Source: Chloroflexota bacterium (lineage in GTDB: Bacteria > Chloroflexota > Dehalococcoidia > GIF9 > JBFMDU01). Taken from it: a stretch of DNA of 64,000 nt. A model generated the notes under the pieces. It was not told the DNA's origin, did no database searches, and was given only the letters and a program-made list of their open reading frames with translations. Positions 51,017 through 57,098 of the stretch are shown in pieces. The stretch covers positions 64,811 through 128,810 of the forward strand of contig JBFMDU010000016.1 in the NCBI GenBank assembly GCA_040753815.1. The letters are read 5' to 3'. Every line of letters starts with the position of its first letter. The first letter of the stretch is position 1. The position numbers were made by a program, and so were the translations under genes.

Positions 51017-52417
51017 GTGCGTCGCTACTTCGCCTTCTTCGGCGTCAGTCTTGCCCTCTTCCTGGGCTCGGTCAATGTCACCGCTATTACCGTAGCCTTC
51101 CCCATCATTATCGACGAACTGCATATTTCTGTGGTGCTCGGCGGCTGGATTCTCAATGCTTTCCAGCTCACTCAGATCGCTCTGATGCCGGTGGCGGGAC
51201 GCCTCAGTGAGACCATGGGCCGCCGGTCGTCGTTTCTTCTGTTCACCGGCATCTTTACCTTCGGCTCGGCCCTGTGCACGGTAGCGCCGGACGCCTACTC
51301 CCTCATCCTGTTCCGCATCATCCAGGCCGCCGGCGGCGCCGGCTTCCTGCCCTCGGCCGCGGGTATTGTCAGCGACGAGTTCCCGCAGTCGCGGCAAAAG
51401 GCCATCGGGCTCTTCAGCAGTGTCTTCCCCGTCGGTATGATTATCGGCCCCAACCTCGGCGCTCTGCTCATTGAAGCTTTCAACTGGCGCGCTACCTTCG
51501 GCGTCACCGCCGTTATCGGCATTCTCGTCATCATCATAGCCCGCTTCCTGCTGCGGAATGACCCGGCAACCTCCGCCAGCTTCAGGCCCTGGCGTGGACT
51601 CGACTTCGTCGGTGCCGGCTGGCTGGCTGGCTTTCTCTTCGCCTTCATGTTCGGCCTGACCCAGCTTTCAAAAGTAGGTGACTGGCAGTCCTGGGCTGCT
51701 GCCTTGCCCTGCTTCCTGGCCGGCGGCGGTTTTCTCTACGGTTTTATCCAGCGCGAGCGCTCTTCTCAAAACCCCATCCTTGACCTGACCATCCTTCGTG
51801 ACCGGCCTTTTATGGCCGCAAATATCTTCAACATGGTGTACGGTCTGTGCGCCTTCGGCATATTCACCCTCATCCCCCTTTATGCCATCACTACCTACAA
51901 CCTCACCGTCATCGAGGCCGGCCTGGCCCTGACTCCGCGCTTCTTCGGTATGATGGCCGCCTCGGCGGTCACCAGCCTCCTTATCAACCGGTGGGGCTAC
52001 CGCGGGCCGATGCTCATCGGCTCGATAATAATCGCCCTGTGCCTGGGCGCACTCTCACTGCGTCTGTCCGGGGCGGGCCTGTTCAGTCCTACCACTACCC
52101 TCATGATAATCATGCTCTTCACCGGCCTCGGCGCCGGCATTTCCGCCCCGGCGGCCAACAACGCCTGCATCGAGCTCATGCCGGAGCGCATCCCCACGAT
52201 TACCGCCCTGCGCACCATGTTCCGCCAGATGGGCGGCGCCACCGGCATCGCCATCAGCACCGTCATTATCCAGGGTATGGGCGAGACCGGCCTGTCCTAT
52301 ACCGTCGTCTTTGCTCTTTGGGGTGTGGTGATGCTGGCTACCATACCTGCCATATTTGCTATGCCGGCCAGCCCTGATTCGTCCGGAGCGACCAGGCCGC
52401 ACGAGACCGATATTTAG
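51017..52417 (+). CDS. MFS transporter (14-TM DHA2/EmrB-like)
   Basis: 466 aa. About 14 hydrophobic segments and the loop motif GRLSETMGRR. Confidence 0.85.
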   Translation: MRRYFAFFGVSLALFLGSVNVTAITVAFPIIIDELHISVVLGGWILNAFQLTQIALMPVAGRLSETMGRRSSFLLFTGIFTFGSALCTVAPDAYSLILFRIIQAAGGAGFLPSAAGIVSDEFPQSRQKAIGLFSSVFPVGMIIGPNLGALLIEAFNWRATFGVTAVIGILVIIIARFLLRNDPATSASFRPWRGLDFVGAGWLAGFLFAFMFGLTQLSKVGDWQSWAAALPCFLAGGGFLYGFIQRERSSQNPILDLTILRDRPFMAANIFNMVYGLCAFGIFTLIPLYAITTYNLTVIEAGLALTPRFFGMMAASAVTSLLINRWGYRGPMLIGSIIIALCLGALSLRLSGAGLFSPTTTLMIIMLFTGLGAGISAPAANNACIELMPERIPTITALRTMFRQMGGATGIAISTVIIQGMGETGLSYTVVFALWGVVMLATIPAIFAMPASPDSSGATRPHETDI

Positions 52418-52454
52418 CAAGCTGTGCTCACCAGGGCACACGCCCGCTTTGGCG

Positions 52455-52575
52455 GTCATTACGAGGGCGCGTCAGCGCCCGTAGCAACCCCCTGGCTCAC
52501 TCTGCAGACTGGCATTTTCTTACAATGTCATTCCGAAGCCAGCATAAGGGCGGCTGAGGAATCTGGCGGGGCGGG
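52455..52575. repeat. REP-like elements (two units)
   Basis: GTCATTACGAGGGCGCGTCAGCGCCCGTAGCAACCCCCTGG and GTCATTCCGAAGCCAGCATAAGGGCGGCTGAGGAATCTGGCGGGGCGGG. Confidence 0.6.
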
Positions 52576-52593
52576 TTCAGTCTGCTCCTCGTA

Positions 52594-52622
52594 TTGACGA
52601 AATATAACATTATTGTTATAAT
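52594..52622 (+). promoter_or_regulatory. Near-consensus sigma70 promoter, probably giving a leaderless higB-like transcript
   Basis: TTGACG, an exactly 17-nt spacer, then TATAAT. The GTG at 52630 lies 7 nt after the -10 and there is no RBS. Confidence 0.5.
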
Positions 52623-52629
52623 CATCGTT

Positions 52630-52797
52630 GTGTGGGAAATTAGCTACTACGAGTCGCCCGATGGCAAACACCCGGTCAAAGACTATATCGATTCGCTTGA
52701 TGCTAAGTCGCAGGCCAAGGTCGCCCGCACCATCGACCTGCTTGAGGAATTCGGCATCAAACTGGGGATGCCCTATGCTAAGGAAGAAATAACATGA
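52630..52797 (+). pseudogene. Truncated HigB/RelE-like (Gp49/DUF891-type) toxin gene
   Basis: (M)WEISYYESPDGKHPVKDYIDSLDAKSQAKVARTIDLLEEFGIKLGMPYAKE matches the N-terminal half of Gp49-like HigB toxins. The ORF stops after ~55 aa, and the expected C-terminal half (LWELR...) is absent. The stop overlaps the antitoxin ATG. Confidence 0.55.
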
Positions 52798-53069
52798 CCT
52801 GGAAAGAGCACAAGAAACAGCTTCTGAAGAATCCCGAATTCCGAAAAGAATATATGGCACTTGAACCGGAATACCGCGTAGCCGCATCGGTTATTAAACT
52901 ACGCCTTTTAAGAGGTCTTACTCAAGAACAGCTAGCCAGACCGATTAAGACCAAGCAGTCAAGTATAGCCCGTCTTGAGAGCGGGACCTCACTCCCATCC
53001 CTGTCAATGCTTAGACGTGTTGCTGATGCGCTGGATGCAAAAGTCGAGGTAGAGCTTCAGCCTCGGTAA
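52794..53069 (+). CDS. XRE-family HTH antitoxin (HigA-like)
   Basis: 91 aa. IKLRLLRGLTQEQLARPIKTKQSSIARLESG is a classic Cro/C1 HTH. Confidence 0.8.
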   Translation: MTWKEHKKQLLKNPEFRKEYMALEPEYRVAASVIKLRLLRGLTQEQLARPIKTKQSSIARLESGTSLPSLSMLRRVADALDAKVEVELQPR

Positions 53070-53083
53070 CCGCCGAATGCTCC

Positions 53084-53236
53084 ATGTTCCAGCAGATGGG
53101 CGGCATCGGTCTGTCTTATACCGTCGTCTTCGCCATCTGGAGCGTGGTGATGCTGGCGACCATCCCCACGATATTCGCCATGCTGAAAAGCCCGAATGCA
53201 CCTGTAGCGGCCCGACCGCAGGTGACAGATACCTAA
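53084..53236 (+). pseudogene. Remnant copy of the 3' end of the upstream MFS gene
   Basis: It translates to MFQQMGGIGLSYTVVFAIWSVVMLATIPTIFAMLKSPNAPVAARPQVTDT. The end of the 51017-52417 gene reads MFRQMGG...GLSYTVVFALWGVVMLATIPAIFAMPASPDS. DNA similarity is obvious, with an internal ~50-nt gap. Confidence 0.7.
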
Positions 53237-53352
53237 TGTAGTGAACGATCTATAACGTCTCTACTCTTGAAAATAATTCGCCAAGCGAACTCTCTTTTGC
53301 TCGAAAACACGTACCGTGATTTCTTACATGAGTAGTTACATCGTAAAGTGCT

Positions 53353-54816
53353 ATGATGTCCTCAGAAGCATGGCCTCAGATTAACATAGGGGCAAGGCGT
53401 GAGATAATAATGAATAGTTCAGCGTTTGAGCAATTCTTGGAGCAACTAGCCAGATACCCATCAATGTGGGATTGTTTAGAGCTGAAAGCTGTTGGAGCCA
53501 CCAAGGGGGAATCTCTATTCTTGTTGGCCTTGTCATGCACTCTTTCCGTAGCGCTCCATCCAAGCCGGGAGGTACTTCTTGAGACACCAGAACTAATTAT
53601 GGTCAAGGAGATTAAGCCCTTGACTGAATTACGGAGCGTCCTAAATGGCTTGACTAGCGGGAGTGTGCTCATATCGGATAGACCGTTTGTGGCTGATGGC
53701 TTCACCGCATTTGAGTGCAGAATGTGGGGTGGTGGCGGTCAAGGATGGGTTGACACTACATACCCGTATGTTTTGCTTTACTCAACTGGGAAATCTGTGA
53801 GAGAACTTGTTGACGACTCTGCGATATATCGTAGTCTTGAGCAGTGGGGTTATCGCTACTTATGGGATGTCAGTCAAGAGAAGGTTGGCTTCCCAGTGGG
53901 CGGAGCCCATGTGAGCCACATCCGTTTCATAGCACCCATATATCTGGAAGCGAATGCAGCGTTTGTCGACAACCACCTGCGAATTGTACTGAAATGCTCG
54001 CCTTCTTTGAAGACGGAAGACCTGTCAGCGGGATACGAAATCACGCTGAACTATCTTGGGAATAGGCAAGTACAGCGTGGCAAGCTGGATTTCCTAGACG
54101 CTTCACGTCTTGAGGATGCTGTTAGCTTTACCCTAGTGAAAGAATTAGACCTTTTGCCTCAGGCAGAGTCGGTGTTTATTTGGCTCTTCCATAGCACCCA
54201 AAAAGACCCTCTATATGCGCTACGTGTCCTAAAGCCCACTACAGCAAAGACTAACCCGGTTTGGGGCGCTATGAATGTGGTGCTATCAAAACGCGAAGGA
54301 GGCCAGATACTCTATGCAGAAGAATTATTACGGAGGTCGCTTGGCCTTACTGCCAAGGGCACAGATTCAGGAAGGTTCGAGAGTGCAGTGCACAATCTGT
54401 TTGGTTGTCTAGGCTACAGTTGCATTTTTACCGGGCGGGAGTGGGGGACTGAGGGGATTGATACTTTGGCTTTTGGGCCTGGGCTGGATGATAAGGTACT
54501 GGCCGTAAGCGTCACAACTTCGAATAATATTGCTGAGAAAATCCGGACGATGCTGTTACAGTTAGAAAACCTCAAGCGCGGCATTGGGAACATCGCTGTA
54601 ATTCCTGTCATATGCGCCTCAATTACCTCTGATTGTGTGCTGCATAGCGACTGGGTAAATCTCAAAGCCCATAACATAAGCCTGTTGCTGTTACCACAGC
54701 TTCAACAAATACTGGATGATATTCTCAGGTTACCATTGCCGGAAGTGAGGAGGAAATGGGAATCAATGCTGGGGGACATGGAAACGCTTCACGGTAAACA
54801 TGACGAAGGAGCCTGA
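53353..54816 (+). CDS. Hypothetical protein with C-terminal degenerate Mrr/restriction-endonuclease-like domain
   Basis: 487 aa. The N-terminal ~340 aa are unrecognisable. The C-terminal FESAVHNLFGCLGYSCIFTGREWGTEGIDTLAF...VLAVSVTTSNN follows the Mrr_cat pattern (FE..v..ll..lGy...D.GiD...QxK), but the (E/Q)xK position reads SVT. Low GC. Confidence 0.5.
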   Translation: MMSSEAWPQINIGARREIIMNSSAFEQFLEQLARYPSMWDCLELKAVGATKGESLFLLALSCTLSVALHPSREVLLETPELIMVKEIKPLTELRSVLNGLTSGSVLISDRPFVADGFTAFECRMWGGGGQGWVDTTYPYVLLYSTGKSVRELVDDSAIYRSLEQWGYRYLWDVSQEKVGFPVGGAHVSHIRFIAPIYLEANAAFVDNHLRIVLKCSPSLKTEDLSAGYEITLNYLGNRQVQRGKLDFLDASRLEDAVSFTLVKELDLLPQAESVFIWLFHSTQKDPLYALRVLKPTTAKTNPVWGAMNVVLSKREGGQILYAEELLRRSLGLTAKGTDSGRFESAVHNLFGCLGYSCIFTGREWGTEGIDTLAFGPGLDDKVLAVSVTTSNNIAEKIRTMLLQLENLKRGIGNIAVIPVICASITSDCVLHSDWVNLKAHNISLLLLPQLQQILDDILRLPLPEVRRKWESMLGDMETLHGKHDEGA

Positions 54817-54821
54817 TAGCT

Positions 54822-55391
54822 ATGGGGGAAGAAACACATCTCGAAGAACTCATACGTAAAGGCGAAAATCAAACGCTTGAATTCAAGAAATCGCTAAGCC
54901 TCCAGCGTGAAGGTCTAGAGGCATTATGCGCGATGGTGAATTCTGATTCAGCTCGCGGGACAGTAATTTTTGGAATTGAGCCAGATGGAACCATCTGTGG
55001 AATTGAGCGGGGCAACCTCGGTACAGCCCAACGTTCGTTGTCGCAAGCCATTAGAAACAGAATCGAGCCTGCACTAGCCGCACAAATAGAGGTCAGAGAA
55101 CTGGATGGTCGGTATGTTCTAGTGCTTAGCGCGGTAAGACATCGGGGTATTCCTTACCACGAATATGATGGTCGAGCTTGGATACGGCAGGGTTCAGAGA
55201 ATCGTAAGCTGGACCTCGCTGAAAAACAGCGCCTTATGAAGAGTAGGGACCGGAATAATCATTCGGGACCGTGGAGATGCGACCGGTGTGGAAGTTGGGT
55301 CGGAGTATTGCACAGCTTTGAGCTGTCAGCCGAAGGAATGAAGAAGAATTACAAATGTCACTGTGGTGGTGAATTCTGGCCAGCCACATGA
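54822..55391 (+). CDS. AlbA_2 (Schlafen-type) domain protein with C-terminal zinc ribbon
   Basis: 189 aa. ENQTLEFKKSLSLQREGLEALCAMVNSDSARGTVIFGIEPDGTICGI matches the AlbA_2 signature. The C-terminus has CDRCGSW...CHCGG. Starts 5 nt after the upstream stop. Confidence 0.6.
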   Translation: MGEETHLEELIRKGENQTLEFKKSLSLQREGLEALCAMVNSDSARGTVIFGIEPDGTICGIERGNLGTAQRSLSQAIRNRIEPALAAQIEVRELDGRYVLVLSAVRHRGIPYHEYDGRAWIRQGSENRKLDLAEKQRLMKSRDRNNHSGPWRCDRCGSWVGVLHSFELSAEGMKKNYKCHCGGEFWPAT

Positions 55392-55416
55392 GCAGGAACT
55401 CTGATTACGACAAACT

Positions 55417-56427
55417 CTACTCTAGTTGTTCGGCAAATTCATACGAAATCAATTCGCCGTTCTTGGTCGCCAGGTAGCCAGCTTCCTTATGCGAGTATTC
55501 CGTAATCTGACTCGCATTAAGCTTGCTGAAGCGCTCGGCAACCCCCGCCATAATGCGAAGCTCGCTATTCGAGAATAATTTCAGGTCAGGCTGTTGTTTA
55601 GCCTTGACTATCTCGCCAATATAGCCGTTCGGATAAGGCTCTTCAAGAAGCTCAATCGCCCCACTGACTTGGAGAGAACCAAGGTACATTTCCCACTTGT
55701 CCGGCGCCGGGCCGAATGGCACGTGAGCGTACCTTGCGCCTGTTACCGGCAAAGCATATTCCTTAAAGTGCTTGAAATCAGCATAAAACAAAAGCTTGTT
55801 CAGCTTGGTCTTGAGAACCCCCTCGCGGCTGAAGAACAAAATCATGTTATAAAGCTTATGAAGATCAAGCTTCCTAAACCCGCTGAACTTATCCGGACTA
55901 TAGTCGCCGAAGTTAAGCAGAATGGCATTATCAATAGAGCATGTACCTGCAAGCGATTCCTGCAGGGATTGGAGCAGTCTGGCTTTCCTTTCCTGACTGA
56001 ATATACCCTCCGACTTTCGGACCAGCTCTGCCAGGTTTTCAGATTTCATAGCAAGCCGGAGCAGTTTATCATGGGACTCTTCCTGCAGTGACCCATTCTC
56101 ATAGCGGCTCAAAGTGGCGGTGCCAATGCCTGTTAATTTGGAAAGCTCACTCTGGGATAAATCAACGGCTTTGCGCCACGCACGTATTTCCTCGGGTTTG
56201 AGAAGACCGTGTTCTGCCCGGTACTGATTGTAGGCCAGGTTGAATGGGTCTCCAGCGGTTGACGGGTCCAAGACTTCATCACCACATTCTTTGCACTTGA
56301 GATATGGTACCTGGACTCTAAGTTGGTCTCTCTTTACCGTGATAACTTCTTCCTTGGACAGAACCTCGAATTCGGCTTTCTTCTCGCAATTCGAGCAGAG
56401 ACGGCGGATTTTCTTTCTATTTTCCAT
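55417..56427 (-). CDS. MqsA-like antitoxin (Zn-ribbon + HTH) fused to a DUF4065/Panacea (SocA/GepA-like) domain
   Basis: 336 aa. CSNCEKK...CKECGDE zinc ribbon and LSQSELSKLTGIGTATLSRYENG HTH, as in MqsA. The C-terminal half has LNKLLFYADFKHFKEYALPVTGARYAHVPFGPAP, typical of DUF4065. AGGAAG RBS. Confidence 0.7.
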   Translation of the reverse strand: MENRKKIRRLCSNCEKKAEFEVLSKEEVITVKRDQLRVQVPYLKCKECGDEVLDPSTAGDPFNLAYNQYRAEHGLLKPEEIRAWRKAVDLSQSELSKLTGIGTATLSRYENGSLQEESHDKLLRLAMKSENLAELVRKSEGIFSQERKARLLQSLQESLAGTCSIDNAILLNFGDYSPDKFSGFRKLDLHKLYNMILFFSREGVLKTKLNKLLFYADFKHFKEYALPVTGARYAHVPFGPAPDKWEMYLGSLQVSGAIELLEEPYPNGYIGEIVKAKQQPDLKLFSNSELRIMAGVAERFSKLNASQITEYSHKEAGYLATKNGELISYEFAEQLE

Positions 56428-56462
56428 CTTAATCTTCCTGCTGCTGATATTGCCGCCGCAGT

Positions 56463-56831
56463 CTATTTGAAAGGGTGCTTAAGCACTTGCTCGGCTTCAT
56501 GAAATGAGACGACTCTGACGGACCTGAGTTTGTCAAGAGTGGCGAGCTTCAGTTTTATATATGCCTCCTTGCCTGATATCGTCTTCCCGAAAATCCAGAC
56601 ATAGCCCTGCTGGTCGCGGTCGTCAACCGGACCCTCACAATAGTCCTCAATGGAAAGACCAAGGACCGTATCTTTAACATCGTCATAGTTGAACCCAAGC
56701 TGAGCGATGAACCGCAGGTTCTTCTCACGCTTCACAACTACCCATGAAACTAAACTACCTGGAGGGCTGGTAAGTACATCCTTCACTTCCTGAAGAAACC
56801 GGCGTACATCTTCTCGATTGGGATGTGTCAA
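56463..56831 (-). CDS. MqsR-family toxin
   Basis: DYCEGPVDD...YVWIFGKTISGKEAYIKLKL...VRVVSFHEAE aligns with E. coli MqsR (DFYKSMTTY...WQDVYRP...GQVYLKITV...LIVSFKEK). A TTG start at 56831 is preceded by GGAGGAG at 8-nt spacing. The longer ORF-track version (to 57071) runs through a REP-like repeat. Confidence 0.65.
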   Translation of the reverse strand: MTHPNREDVRRFLQEVKDVLTSPPGSLVSWVVVKREKNLRFIAQLGFNYDDVKDTVLGLSIEDYCEGPVDDRDQQGYVWIFGKTISGKEAYIKLKLATLDKLRSVRVVSFHEAEQVLKHPFK

Positions 56832-56967
56832 AACATGGCTCCTCCACCCTCCATATGATATAAGTATATCATTTGATATGTCAATGTCAAGATGACGCAT
56901 CGAATGATTTATTTCACGGATATGAGGTTGCCACGCTTCGCTCATATGACCGGGCGTGACTTCACTT

Positions 56968-57004
56968 CCACCCCACCAGATGCTTCGCTTCGCTCCAGCA
57001 TGAC
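56968..57004. repeat. REP-like element (half unit, inverted)
   Basis: CCACCCCACCAGATGCTTCGCTTCGCTCCAGCATGAC is the reverse complement of the GTCATGCTGGAGCGAAGCGAAGCATCTGGTGGGGTGG-type arm. Confidence 0.6.
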
Positions 57005-57098
57005 ATAAATACAACCCTTGTTGCCCATTCCTTCGTAAGCTATAATCACCTTGATTCACGAGCGGGCACACTCGCTATCTGAAAACGAAGGACTTGAC

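Follow-up and report, generated by a model that had tools for sequence, protein, structure and literature searches.

A two-gene cassette in a Dehalococcoidia genome encodes a Schlafen-type protein and a candidate partner with a predicted restriction-endonuclease-like fold

We analyzed a stretch of 64,000 nucleotides (nt) from a Chloroflexota bacterium of the class Dehalococcoidia (assembly GCA_040753815.1, contig JBFMDU010000016.1, positions 64,811 to 128,810), referred to here as the window, and focused on a candidate defence cassette within it. The cassette is a discrete two-gene unit of 2.07 kb (53347..55414), and all of its features are on the + strand. It contains two open reading frames (ORFs), 53353..54816 (487 amino acids, aa) and 54822..55391 (189 aa), separated by a gap of 5 nt, just as described in an earlier note made from the sequence alone. 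We call the upstream gene A and the downstream gene B. Gene A belongs to an uncharacterised family and gene B encodes a prokaryotic Schlafen (pSlfn) nuclease domain with a C-terminal zinc ribbon.

Gene A probably starts at the ATG at 53410 and encodes 468 aa (53410..54816). The earlier note had taken the full ORF of 487 aa; the ORF is present, but the likely start is internal. All homologues of gene A start at the MNSS/MSE methionine, the database copy is 468 aa, and in the cassettes on two other contigs (L001 and L009) the upstream ATG meets a TAA three codons on.

Expression of gene B appears to depend on sequences upstream of it. The Shine-Dalgarno sequence of gene B (GAAGGAG, 54804..54810, read from the sequence) is within the 3' end of gene A, 11 nt ahead of the ATG at 54822, and a scan of the junction between the genes for a promoter-like site found none. 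A solo homologue of gene B (L044, 77% identity) has its own predicted TGGTATAAT promoter and shares DNA with the cassette only from 54813 on. These two features of L044 indicate that in the cassette lineage gene B was placed behind gene A, apparently with the loss of its own promoter.

The two genes have moved together. In blastn comparisons, 53347-55414 was 88% identical to both L001 and L009, and the flanking DNA on either side was unrelated. The DNA upstream of the cassette differs between L001 and L009, giving at least three different flanks in all, and a fourth contig (L040) also carries the gene A-gene B pair. The two proteins have diverged in step, with amino-acid identities of 89% for A and 84-85% for B. 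We found no convincing terminal repeats at the ends of the cassette.

Gene B (54822..55391) encodes a Schlafen nuclease domain. Residues 15-130 match Pfam SLFN_AlbA_2 (PF04326) over profile positions 1-117 of 118, with a score of 70.4 bits (cut-off of 25.3) and E=2.4e-19, bearing out the AlbA_2 assignment in the earlier note. In an alignment with 26 homologues, the Ex4ExK Schlafen motif E15-NQTL-E20-F-K22 (54864..54887) was intact and E15, Q17, E20, and K22 were invariant. The C-terminal Cys4 zinc ribbon, C153-x2-C156...C179-x-C181 (55269..55376), which had been recognised from its CxxC...CxC pattern, was likewise conserved: C153, C156, and C181 were invariant, C179 was present in at least 90%, and G149, P150, W151, Y177, and G182-G183 were conserved alongside the cysteines. 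The family comprises at least 237 clusters of proteins of ~185-195 aa (55-85% identity), and its distribution is sporadic, with members in 2/401 genomes of the class.

The earlier note did not recognise the pairing as a named system. Schlafen-based defence as such now has a name: in 2026 it was published as pSlfn, and Schlafen nucleases were shown to be widespread effectors against phage. Prokaryotic Schlafens protect against phage by trigger-activated tRNA cleavage, the catalytic motif of the Schlafen RNase is Ex4(E/D)xK, and the E15A/D20A variant of RorSlfn5 is nuclease-dead (PMC13056530; Perez Taboada et al., Nat Microbiol 2026). In the same study, pSlfn architectures were sorted into 55 classes, presumed sensor domains were reported as fusions to 97% of pSlfn domains, and pSlfn5 was proven to sense through an Ig-like beta-sandwich (PMC13056530). 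Like RorSlfn5 and EcoSlfn7, gene B has an N-terminal SLFN_AlbA_2 domain with the Ex4(E/D)xK motif at identical residue numbers (E15, E20, K22), and like other pSlfn genes it is borne on an accessory island with defence genes as neighbours. It differs from the characterised proteins in that it is minimal (189 aa) and its only extra domain is the ~40-aa Cys4 ribbon. We conclude that gene B is a predicted pSlfn member in which the Ex4ExK site is intact and the only addition is a small Cys4 ribbon, and, by analogy with the characterised proteins, we infer that it has RNase activity and that its target is tRNA. A profile search also matched PDB 2kyy, the AlbA_2 domain of a RecG-related protein (0.007), and there was a weak match to the N-terminal Schlafen part of the PADLOC pAgo model (2.1e-5).

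The protein encoded by gene A is predicted to consist of two beta-sandwich domains followed by a nuclease-like domain. In the AlphaFold2 (AF2) model (m8b9ae659ad88; predicted local distance difference test, pLDDT, of 78), a short helix is followed by two all-beta, Ig-like sandwich domains (residues ~20-275, 53467..54234; pLDDT mostly 75-94) and then by an alpha/beta domain (residues ~300-455, 54307..54774). At the level of sequence, gene A had no meaningful match in Pfam, NCBIfam, PADLOC, PHROG, or PDB (phmmer and profile searches). The N-terminal 340 aa, which the earlier note did not recognise, are here predicted to form the two beta-sandwich domains. Foldseek searches with the whole model gave only generic matches, to CBM21, NPC2, and Ig-like domains in PDB and, among viral structures, to Ig-like glycoproteins of herpesviruses, and in these two libraries they did not identify the N-terminal domains (template-modelling, TM, score on the query of <0.2).

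The C-terminal domain is predicted to have the core fold of restriction endonucleases, in agreement with the Mrr_cat-like fold proposed before. Modelled alone, it gave a pLDDT of 82 and a predicted TM score of 0.80, and Foldseek matched it exclusively to PD-(D/E)xK enzymes. The top match was N.BspD6I (probability 1.0, TM score on the query of ~0.5); others were cap-snatching endonucleases, R2 RLE, EcoO109I, Card1, MUS81/Hef, BstEII, and McrC. The Foldseek E-values were modest (best of 4e-3). By hhalign, a profile of the C-terminal domain aligned with Mrr_cat with a probability of 90.8% and E=1.2e-6, using a Mrr_cat alignment of eight sequences built from the genomes of eight relatives. Gene A itself did not match the Mrr_cat Pfam model at E<=1 or reach its gathering score. 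Among 80 family members searched against Pfam, there were two matches to Mrr_cat (best 0.0049), one to Card1_endonuc, and one to BsuBI_PstI_RE, all of them weak.

We considered and rejected the possibility that gene A is a short Argonaute, which had been raised by its length of ~470 aa and by the pAgo match of its neighbour in PADLOC: the predicted fold is beta-sandwich plus restriction endonuclease, with no Piwi signal, and neither gene A nor any other gene of the island matched a Piwi/Argonaute MID-PIWI model in Pfam or PADLOC.

The active site of the nuclease-like domain is a variant one. The hhalign pairing matches E324 (codon 54379-54381) with the 'FE' Glu of helix 1 of Mrr_cat (PF04471), D351 (54460-54462) with the Asp of 'G-x-D' in beta2, and S367-V-T369 (54508..54516), on the strand that normally carries (E/Q)-x-K, with Q-C-K. 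Gene A thus shares with Mrr_cat the core fold, the order of elements, and the positions of E324 and D351, but the beta3 (E/Q)-x-K is S-V-T and a conserved Lys, K377 (54538-54540), is found eight residues past T369, in the following helix. The canonical D...(D/E/Q)-x-K signature is therefore not present: D351 is kept and beta3 reads S-V-T. Gene A also differs from Mrr_cat proteins in falling below the Pfam thresholds and in having two beta-sandwiches fused to its N-terminal side in place of a winged-helix DNA-binding domain.

Across 80 family members, E324 was Glu in 76, D351 was Asp in 79, and K377 was Lys in 74; position 369 was Thr in 73 and never Lys. These four residues were near invariant at an overall identity of <20%. 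Position 367 was Glu in 38 members, Ser in 36, and Gln in three, and position 373 was Asp in 47 and Asn in 17. Because Thr at 369 is family-wide and E324, D351, and K377 are nearly invariant, the alignment indicates an old variant site, with a loss of the Lys that is ancient and conserved across the family, and not recent decay. The description of this nuclease as degenerate is accordingly right in part: the substitution of (E/Q)xK was correctly seen, and acidic residues retained at 367 and 373 by at least half of the members sampled have also been lost in the clade of the cassette, but the replacement of the Lys is shared by nearly all members. The E-C-T-x3-D spacing in family A resembles the 'ERKx3D' motif of XPF/Mus81; this is a lead only, as the MUS81/Hef matches in Foldseek were weak and there was no ERCC4 match in Pfam.

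Family A is widespread but sporadic. A profile search over 1.84 billion cluster representatives (50% identity) found 286 at E<=1e-3, mostly of 440-500 aa and with the same layout. The family was present in 1/401 genomes of the class (single-protein query) and 5/401 of the phylum (profile), with one extra locus in the GTDB species genomes and six in a metagenome scan; searches in the classes of genomes G424 and G447 covered 5-6 genomes, and the last profile word-search returned 13 proteins. Two relatives with 44-47% identity (L005, 6001-6450; P0010, also P0011) have an extra N-terminal domain of ~140 aa (MSRLTVESY...WYYIPELG...) without a Pfam match, so the family tolerates N-terminal additions. 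Apart from gene A, the close subfamily has a single copy among GTDB genomes, in a Dehalococcoidia metagenome-assembled genome (L018; DAOUBE010000087.1, 5461-6962); this copy is frameshifted near residue ~280 and is a pseudogene or else misassembled.

Family A is adjacent to a Schlafen gene in a second, distant lineage. In G424 (L026), 97 nt separate a family-A member with an ORF of 630 aa from the gene upstream of it, which encodes a different Schlafen protein of 355 aa. This protein has the motif E-TTSV-E-F-K and matches SLFN_AlbA_2 (3.2e-10) and PADLOC PDC-S50 (1.4e-10). Across 151 genomes of the phylum there were 111 AlbA_2 matches, so that such genes are rare; G000 contains a single AlbA_2 gene and G424 contains two, and in each of these two genomes one of them directly adjoins a family-A gene. 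By rough estimate, two such adjacencies in ~11 lineages are far above random placement (~1e-5 to 1e-6), and if strong clustering in defence islands is allowed for they become only borderline (~0.01). At the same locus (G424:C13, 6054-11701), the family-A ORF has an N-terminal extension of ~190 aa, the Schlafen neighbour has an unknown N-terminal domain of 200 aa, and downstream there is an 831-aa protein without a Pfam or PADLOC match, followed by a Mu-like transposase. This locus may be a three-gene variant.

The cassette is part of an accessory island. The AT-rich setting noted earlier is real: the guanine-plus-cytosine content is 0.489 in the low-GC island (52418-57086) and 0.487 in the cassette, against 0.564 in the rest of the window. 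From composition and comparison with a congener, the island is 4.6 kb (52418..57017, no strand assigned) and is between a major facilitator superfamily (MFS) transporter gene and the leuS promoter. In a genome of the same genus (G756), the island is absent, only ~125-135 nt separate the MFS stop from the leuS start, and the promoter-like sequence of leuS matches ~57018-57047 of the window. Based on this spacing and the promoter match, we conclude that 52418-57017 is an insertion into the MFS-leuS interval.

The other genes of the island are toxin-antitoxin (TA) genes, in line with the earlier description of the neighbourhood. Upstream of the cassette, there is a truncated Gp49/HigB-like ORF with a helix-turn-helix (HTH) antitoxin (52594..53069, +; Pfam Gp49, 2.1e-4, covering only profile positions 1-34 of 90; HTH_3, 3.7e-12). 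Downstream and convergent with gene B is a pair on the - strand (55417..57071), consisting of an MqsA-HTH-Panacea (SocA) fusion antitoxin (55417-56427; Pfam SocA_Panacea, 3.7e-17, and MqsA_antitoxin, 6.4e-10; NCBIfam TIGR03830, 1.5e-27) and an MqsR-like toxin gene (56463-57071; Pfam MqsR_toxin, 7.7e-6). The MqsR-like ORF is 202 aa, and the toxin profile is matched by residues 116-192 only, so its true start may be internal. The longest leuS ORF has a TTG start at 57051 and overlaps the MqsR-like ORF; alignment with the congener favors an ATG at ~57096 (MASPYNP...).

The 3' end of the MFS gene (~150 nt, 52264-52412) is repeated at 53083-53231 as a direct repeat of 149 nt with 73% identity, and the two copies bracket the HigB-like/HTH genes. 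The second copy is a 50-aa ORF that resembles the MFS C-terminus. Its divergence suggests that it came with foreign DNA from a related genome and not by local duplication.

Both gene families are found beside defence genes in other genomes, as the earlier note had anticipated for a defence module. Among the neighbours of family A are ShosA (1.9e-67), a type III restriction helicase (1.5e-65), transposases, a NurA protein, and a weak match to GmrSD_C, and the cassette in L001 has PDC-M11A (8.4e-156) on one side and a PglX-like methyltransferase (6.7e-55) on the other. Next to solo homologues of gene B are genes for a SIR2-like protein, RmrA, an HNH protein, and a type II methyltransferase. In a small sample of ~6 contexts, gene B thus resembles pSlfn genes in its location near defence genes or in accessory islands, here with TA genes as neighbours and a congener that does not have the island.

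Several of these loci have features of their own. In three (L010-L012, 5744-6928), a solo Schlafen-ribbon homologue (73% identity) is followed 174 nt on by a 394-aa SIR2-like gene (PADLOC SIR2, 2.7e-8) and then by an RmrA-like HTH-M78 peptidase; the SIR2-like gene could possibly be another partner arrangement for the Schlafen-ribbon family. In two others (L003, 4196-5392, and L038, 3370-4581), a relative of gene A with 61-63% identity is surrounded by housekeeping genes (SecDF, CoaE, NADH dehydrogenase) and immediately follows a gene for a NurA-domain nuclease. We also considered a phage origin and rejected it, as neither family had close relatives in IMG/VR.

We compared the cassette with other systems that have similar parts. 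In SLFN-pAgo and CRISPR-associated Schlafen (Cash) systems (bioRxiv 2026.05.29.728809; PMC13462974), a Schlafen effector is controlled by a separate sensing module, as may be the case here; in the island, searches with Pfam and PADLOC showed neither an Argonaute nor a GHKL ATPase, and nothing of the Csx15/CARF or CRISPR type. Gene A resembles Shedu-type proteins in that non-catalytic N-terminal domains precede a C-terminal PD-(D/E)xK fold and in that the family is often solo beside defence genes. It differs in that it matches no PADLOC model, Shedu included, its N-terminal region is conserved and not variable, and its motif is non-canonical.

Based on these results, our preferred, still tentative, reading is that this is a mobile, co-transcribed two-gene Schlafen defence cassette in which the product of gene B would be the RNase effector and that of gene A would act in sensing or regulation in trans. 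Gene A would supply the part that most pSlfn proteins carry as a fusion. The cassette and pSlfn5 have an Ig-like beta-sandwich in common, fused to the nuclease in pSlfn5; here the sandwiches are on a separate upstream protein that also bears the restriction-like domain. Since the pSlfn5 sensor is an Ig-like beta-sandwich and gene A is predicted to have two, a sensor role for gene A is suggested, and the pair might recognise a component of an invader. The restriction-like domain, without the canonical Lys or the beta3 acid, might bind (perhaps nick) nucleic acid or hold a complex together. Once activated, gene B would cut tRNA and arrest translation, as characterised pSlfn proteins do, with the Cys4 ribbon as a possible adaptor or nucleic-acid-binding module. 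A defence role is plausible by this analogy, and we infer that the two proteins are coupled, physically or functionally, and that a trigger activates them. The loss of the gene B promoter, the movement of the cassette as a unit, and the recurrence of the adjacency in G424 together weaken the case for pure coincidence.

Several observations weigh against this reading. The earlier note had made its proposal depend on conservation of the two genes as a pair, and for the most part they are not conserved as a pair. Among the ~11 family-A lineages and ~6 family-B contexts sampled, the AlbA_2-ribbon protein was beside family A only in the lineage with at least 88% identity to the cassette, and nine of the ~11 independent lineages had no AlbA_2 neighbour at all. 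These included relatives with 69% (L002), 61-63% (L003/L038), 51% (L004), 50% (L041/L018), 45% (L042), and 44% (L005) identity, as well as distant members (L024, L025, and L047). Homologues of gene B with 77% identity or less had other neighbours or none, and an all-versus-all BLAST of the neighbours at 16 loci found no conserved partner gene for either family. Adjacency of two defence genes is to some degree expected in defence islands. The N- and C-terminal parts of gene A evolve at equal rates (~52-54% mean identity), which weakens the picture of an arms-race sensor because such a sensor would be expected to vary faster. Lastly, PADLOC assigns neither protein to a system; of the earlier proposal that domains and context are of an anti-phage type, the domain calls and context stood, with the Ex4ExK site intact, and the check by PADLOC did not add a named system.

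The main rival explanation, which we consider a real but somewhat doubtful possibility, is that the cassette is two autonomous single-gene defence modules, stacked and co-transcribed in one lineage and hitch-hiking together, with the ribbon of gene B serving as its own sensor and gene A being sensor and effector in one. Both families are mostly solo with varied neighbours, family A on its own adjoins unrelated defence genes, and the solo homologues of gene B have their own promoter and are conserved along their whole length. The near invariance of E324, D351, T369, and K377 would then reflect an active or ligand-binding site belonging to family A itself. On the other side, the promoter loss and the 5-nt gap make expression of B dependent on A, the unit has moved intact into at least three contexts, and the second Schlafen adjacency, in G424, is improbable at the genome-wide frequency of AlbA_2 genes.

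A third explanation, in which gene B is a Schlafen RNase toxin and gene A its neutraliser or regulator in a toxin-immunity or addiction module that stabilises the island, seems improbable. The rest of the island does consist of TA modules, the two genes form a tight bicistron, and RNase activity is typical of toxins. However, type II toxins are always with their cognate antitoxin, and A and B are mostly apart: gene B is alone in most contexts and so has no need of A for immunity, and gene A, at 468 aa, has many relatives in places where B is absent. For a type II TA pair, both the order of the genes and their sizes would also be atypical.

It is very unlikely that the cassette serves some purpose other than conflict or is in decay, with B as a small nucleic-acid-binding or regulatory AlbA_2 protein and A as the remnant of an inactivated nuclease: although homologues of gene B carry public names that are regulatory ('predicted HTH transcriptional regulator') or RecG-like, 30% of pSlfn genes are away from known defence genes (PMC13056530), the cassette clade of gene A is without the beta3 acid and D373, and the relative in L018 is frameshifted, the catalytic Ex4ExK motif is invariant, both ORFs are intact and 84-89% conserved across contigs with no stops, and the sporadic occurrence of the genes (1/401 genomes of the class for family A, 2/401 for B), on an island absent from a congener, is accessory, conflict-type behaviour.

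As far as our searches show, family A as a partner and the split arrangement are undescribed in the libraries and literature covered, whereas the ribbon architecture of gene B is at most a new pSlfn member. It is conceivable, though unlikely, that the ~470-aa family A, with its two beta-sandwiches and a restriction fold of the pattern E...D...[E/S]-x-T...K, is a new, unnamed defence class that acts alone or as a detachable sensor or regulator for different Schlafen nucleases. If it does act as a detachable sensor, the cassette would be the first split, two-protein Schlafen system, and the C-terminal domain would be either a PD-(D/E)xK variant whose catalytic Lys has moved off the beta-strand or a site repurposed for sensing a ligand. 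Should the two genes be no more than stacked, the result is a useful annotation, a pSlfn member in the Dehalococcoidia and a candidate solo defence family, that would not surprise a specialist. In family A, the conserved, non-canonical site on a restriction fold is of interest for both structure and activity. The cassette itself is a simple natural experiment on the regulation of a Schlafen RNase in trans and bears on how Schlafen nucleases are switched on.

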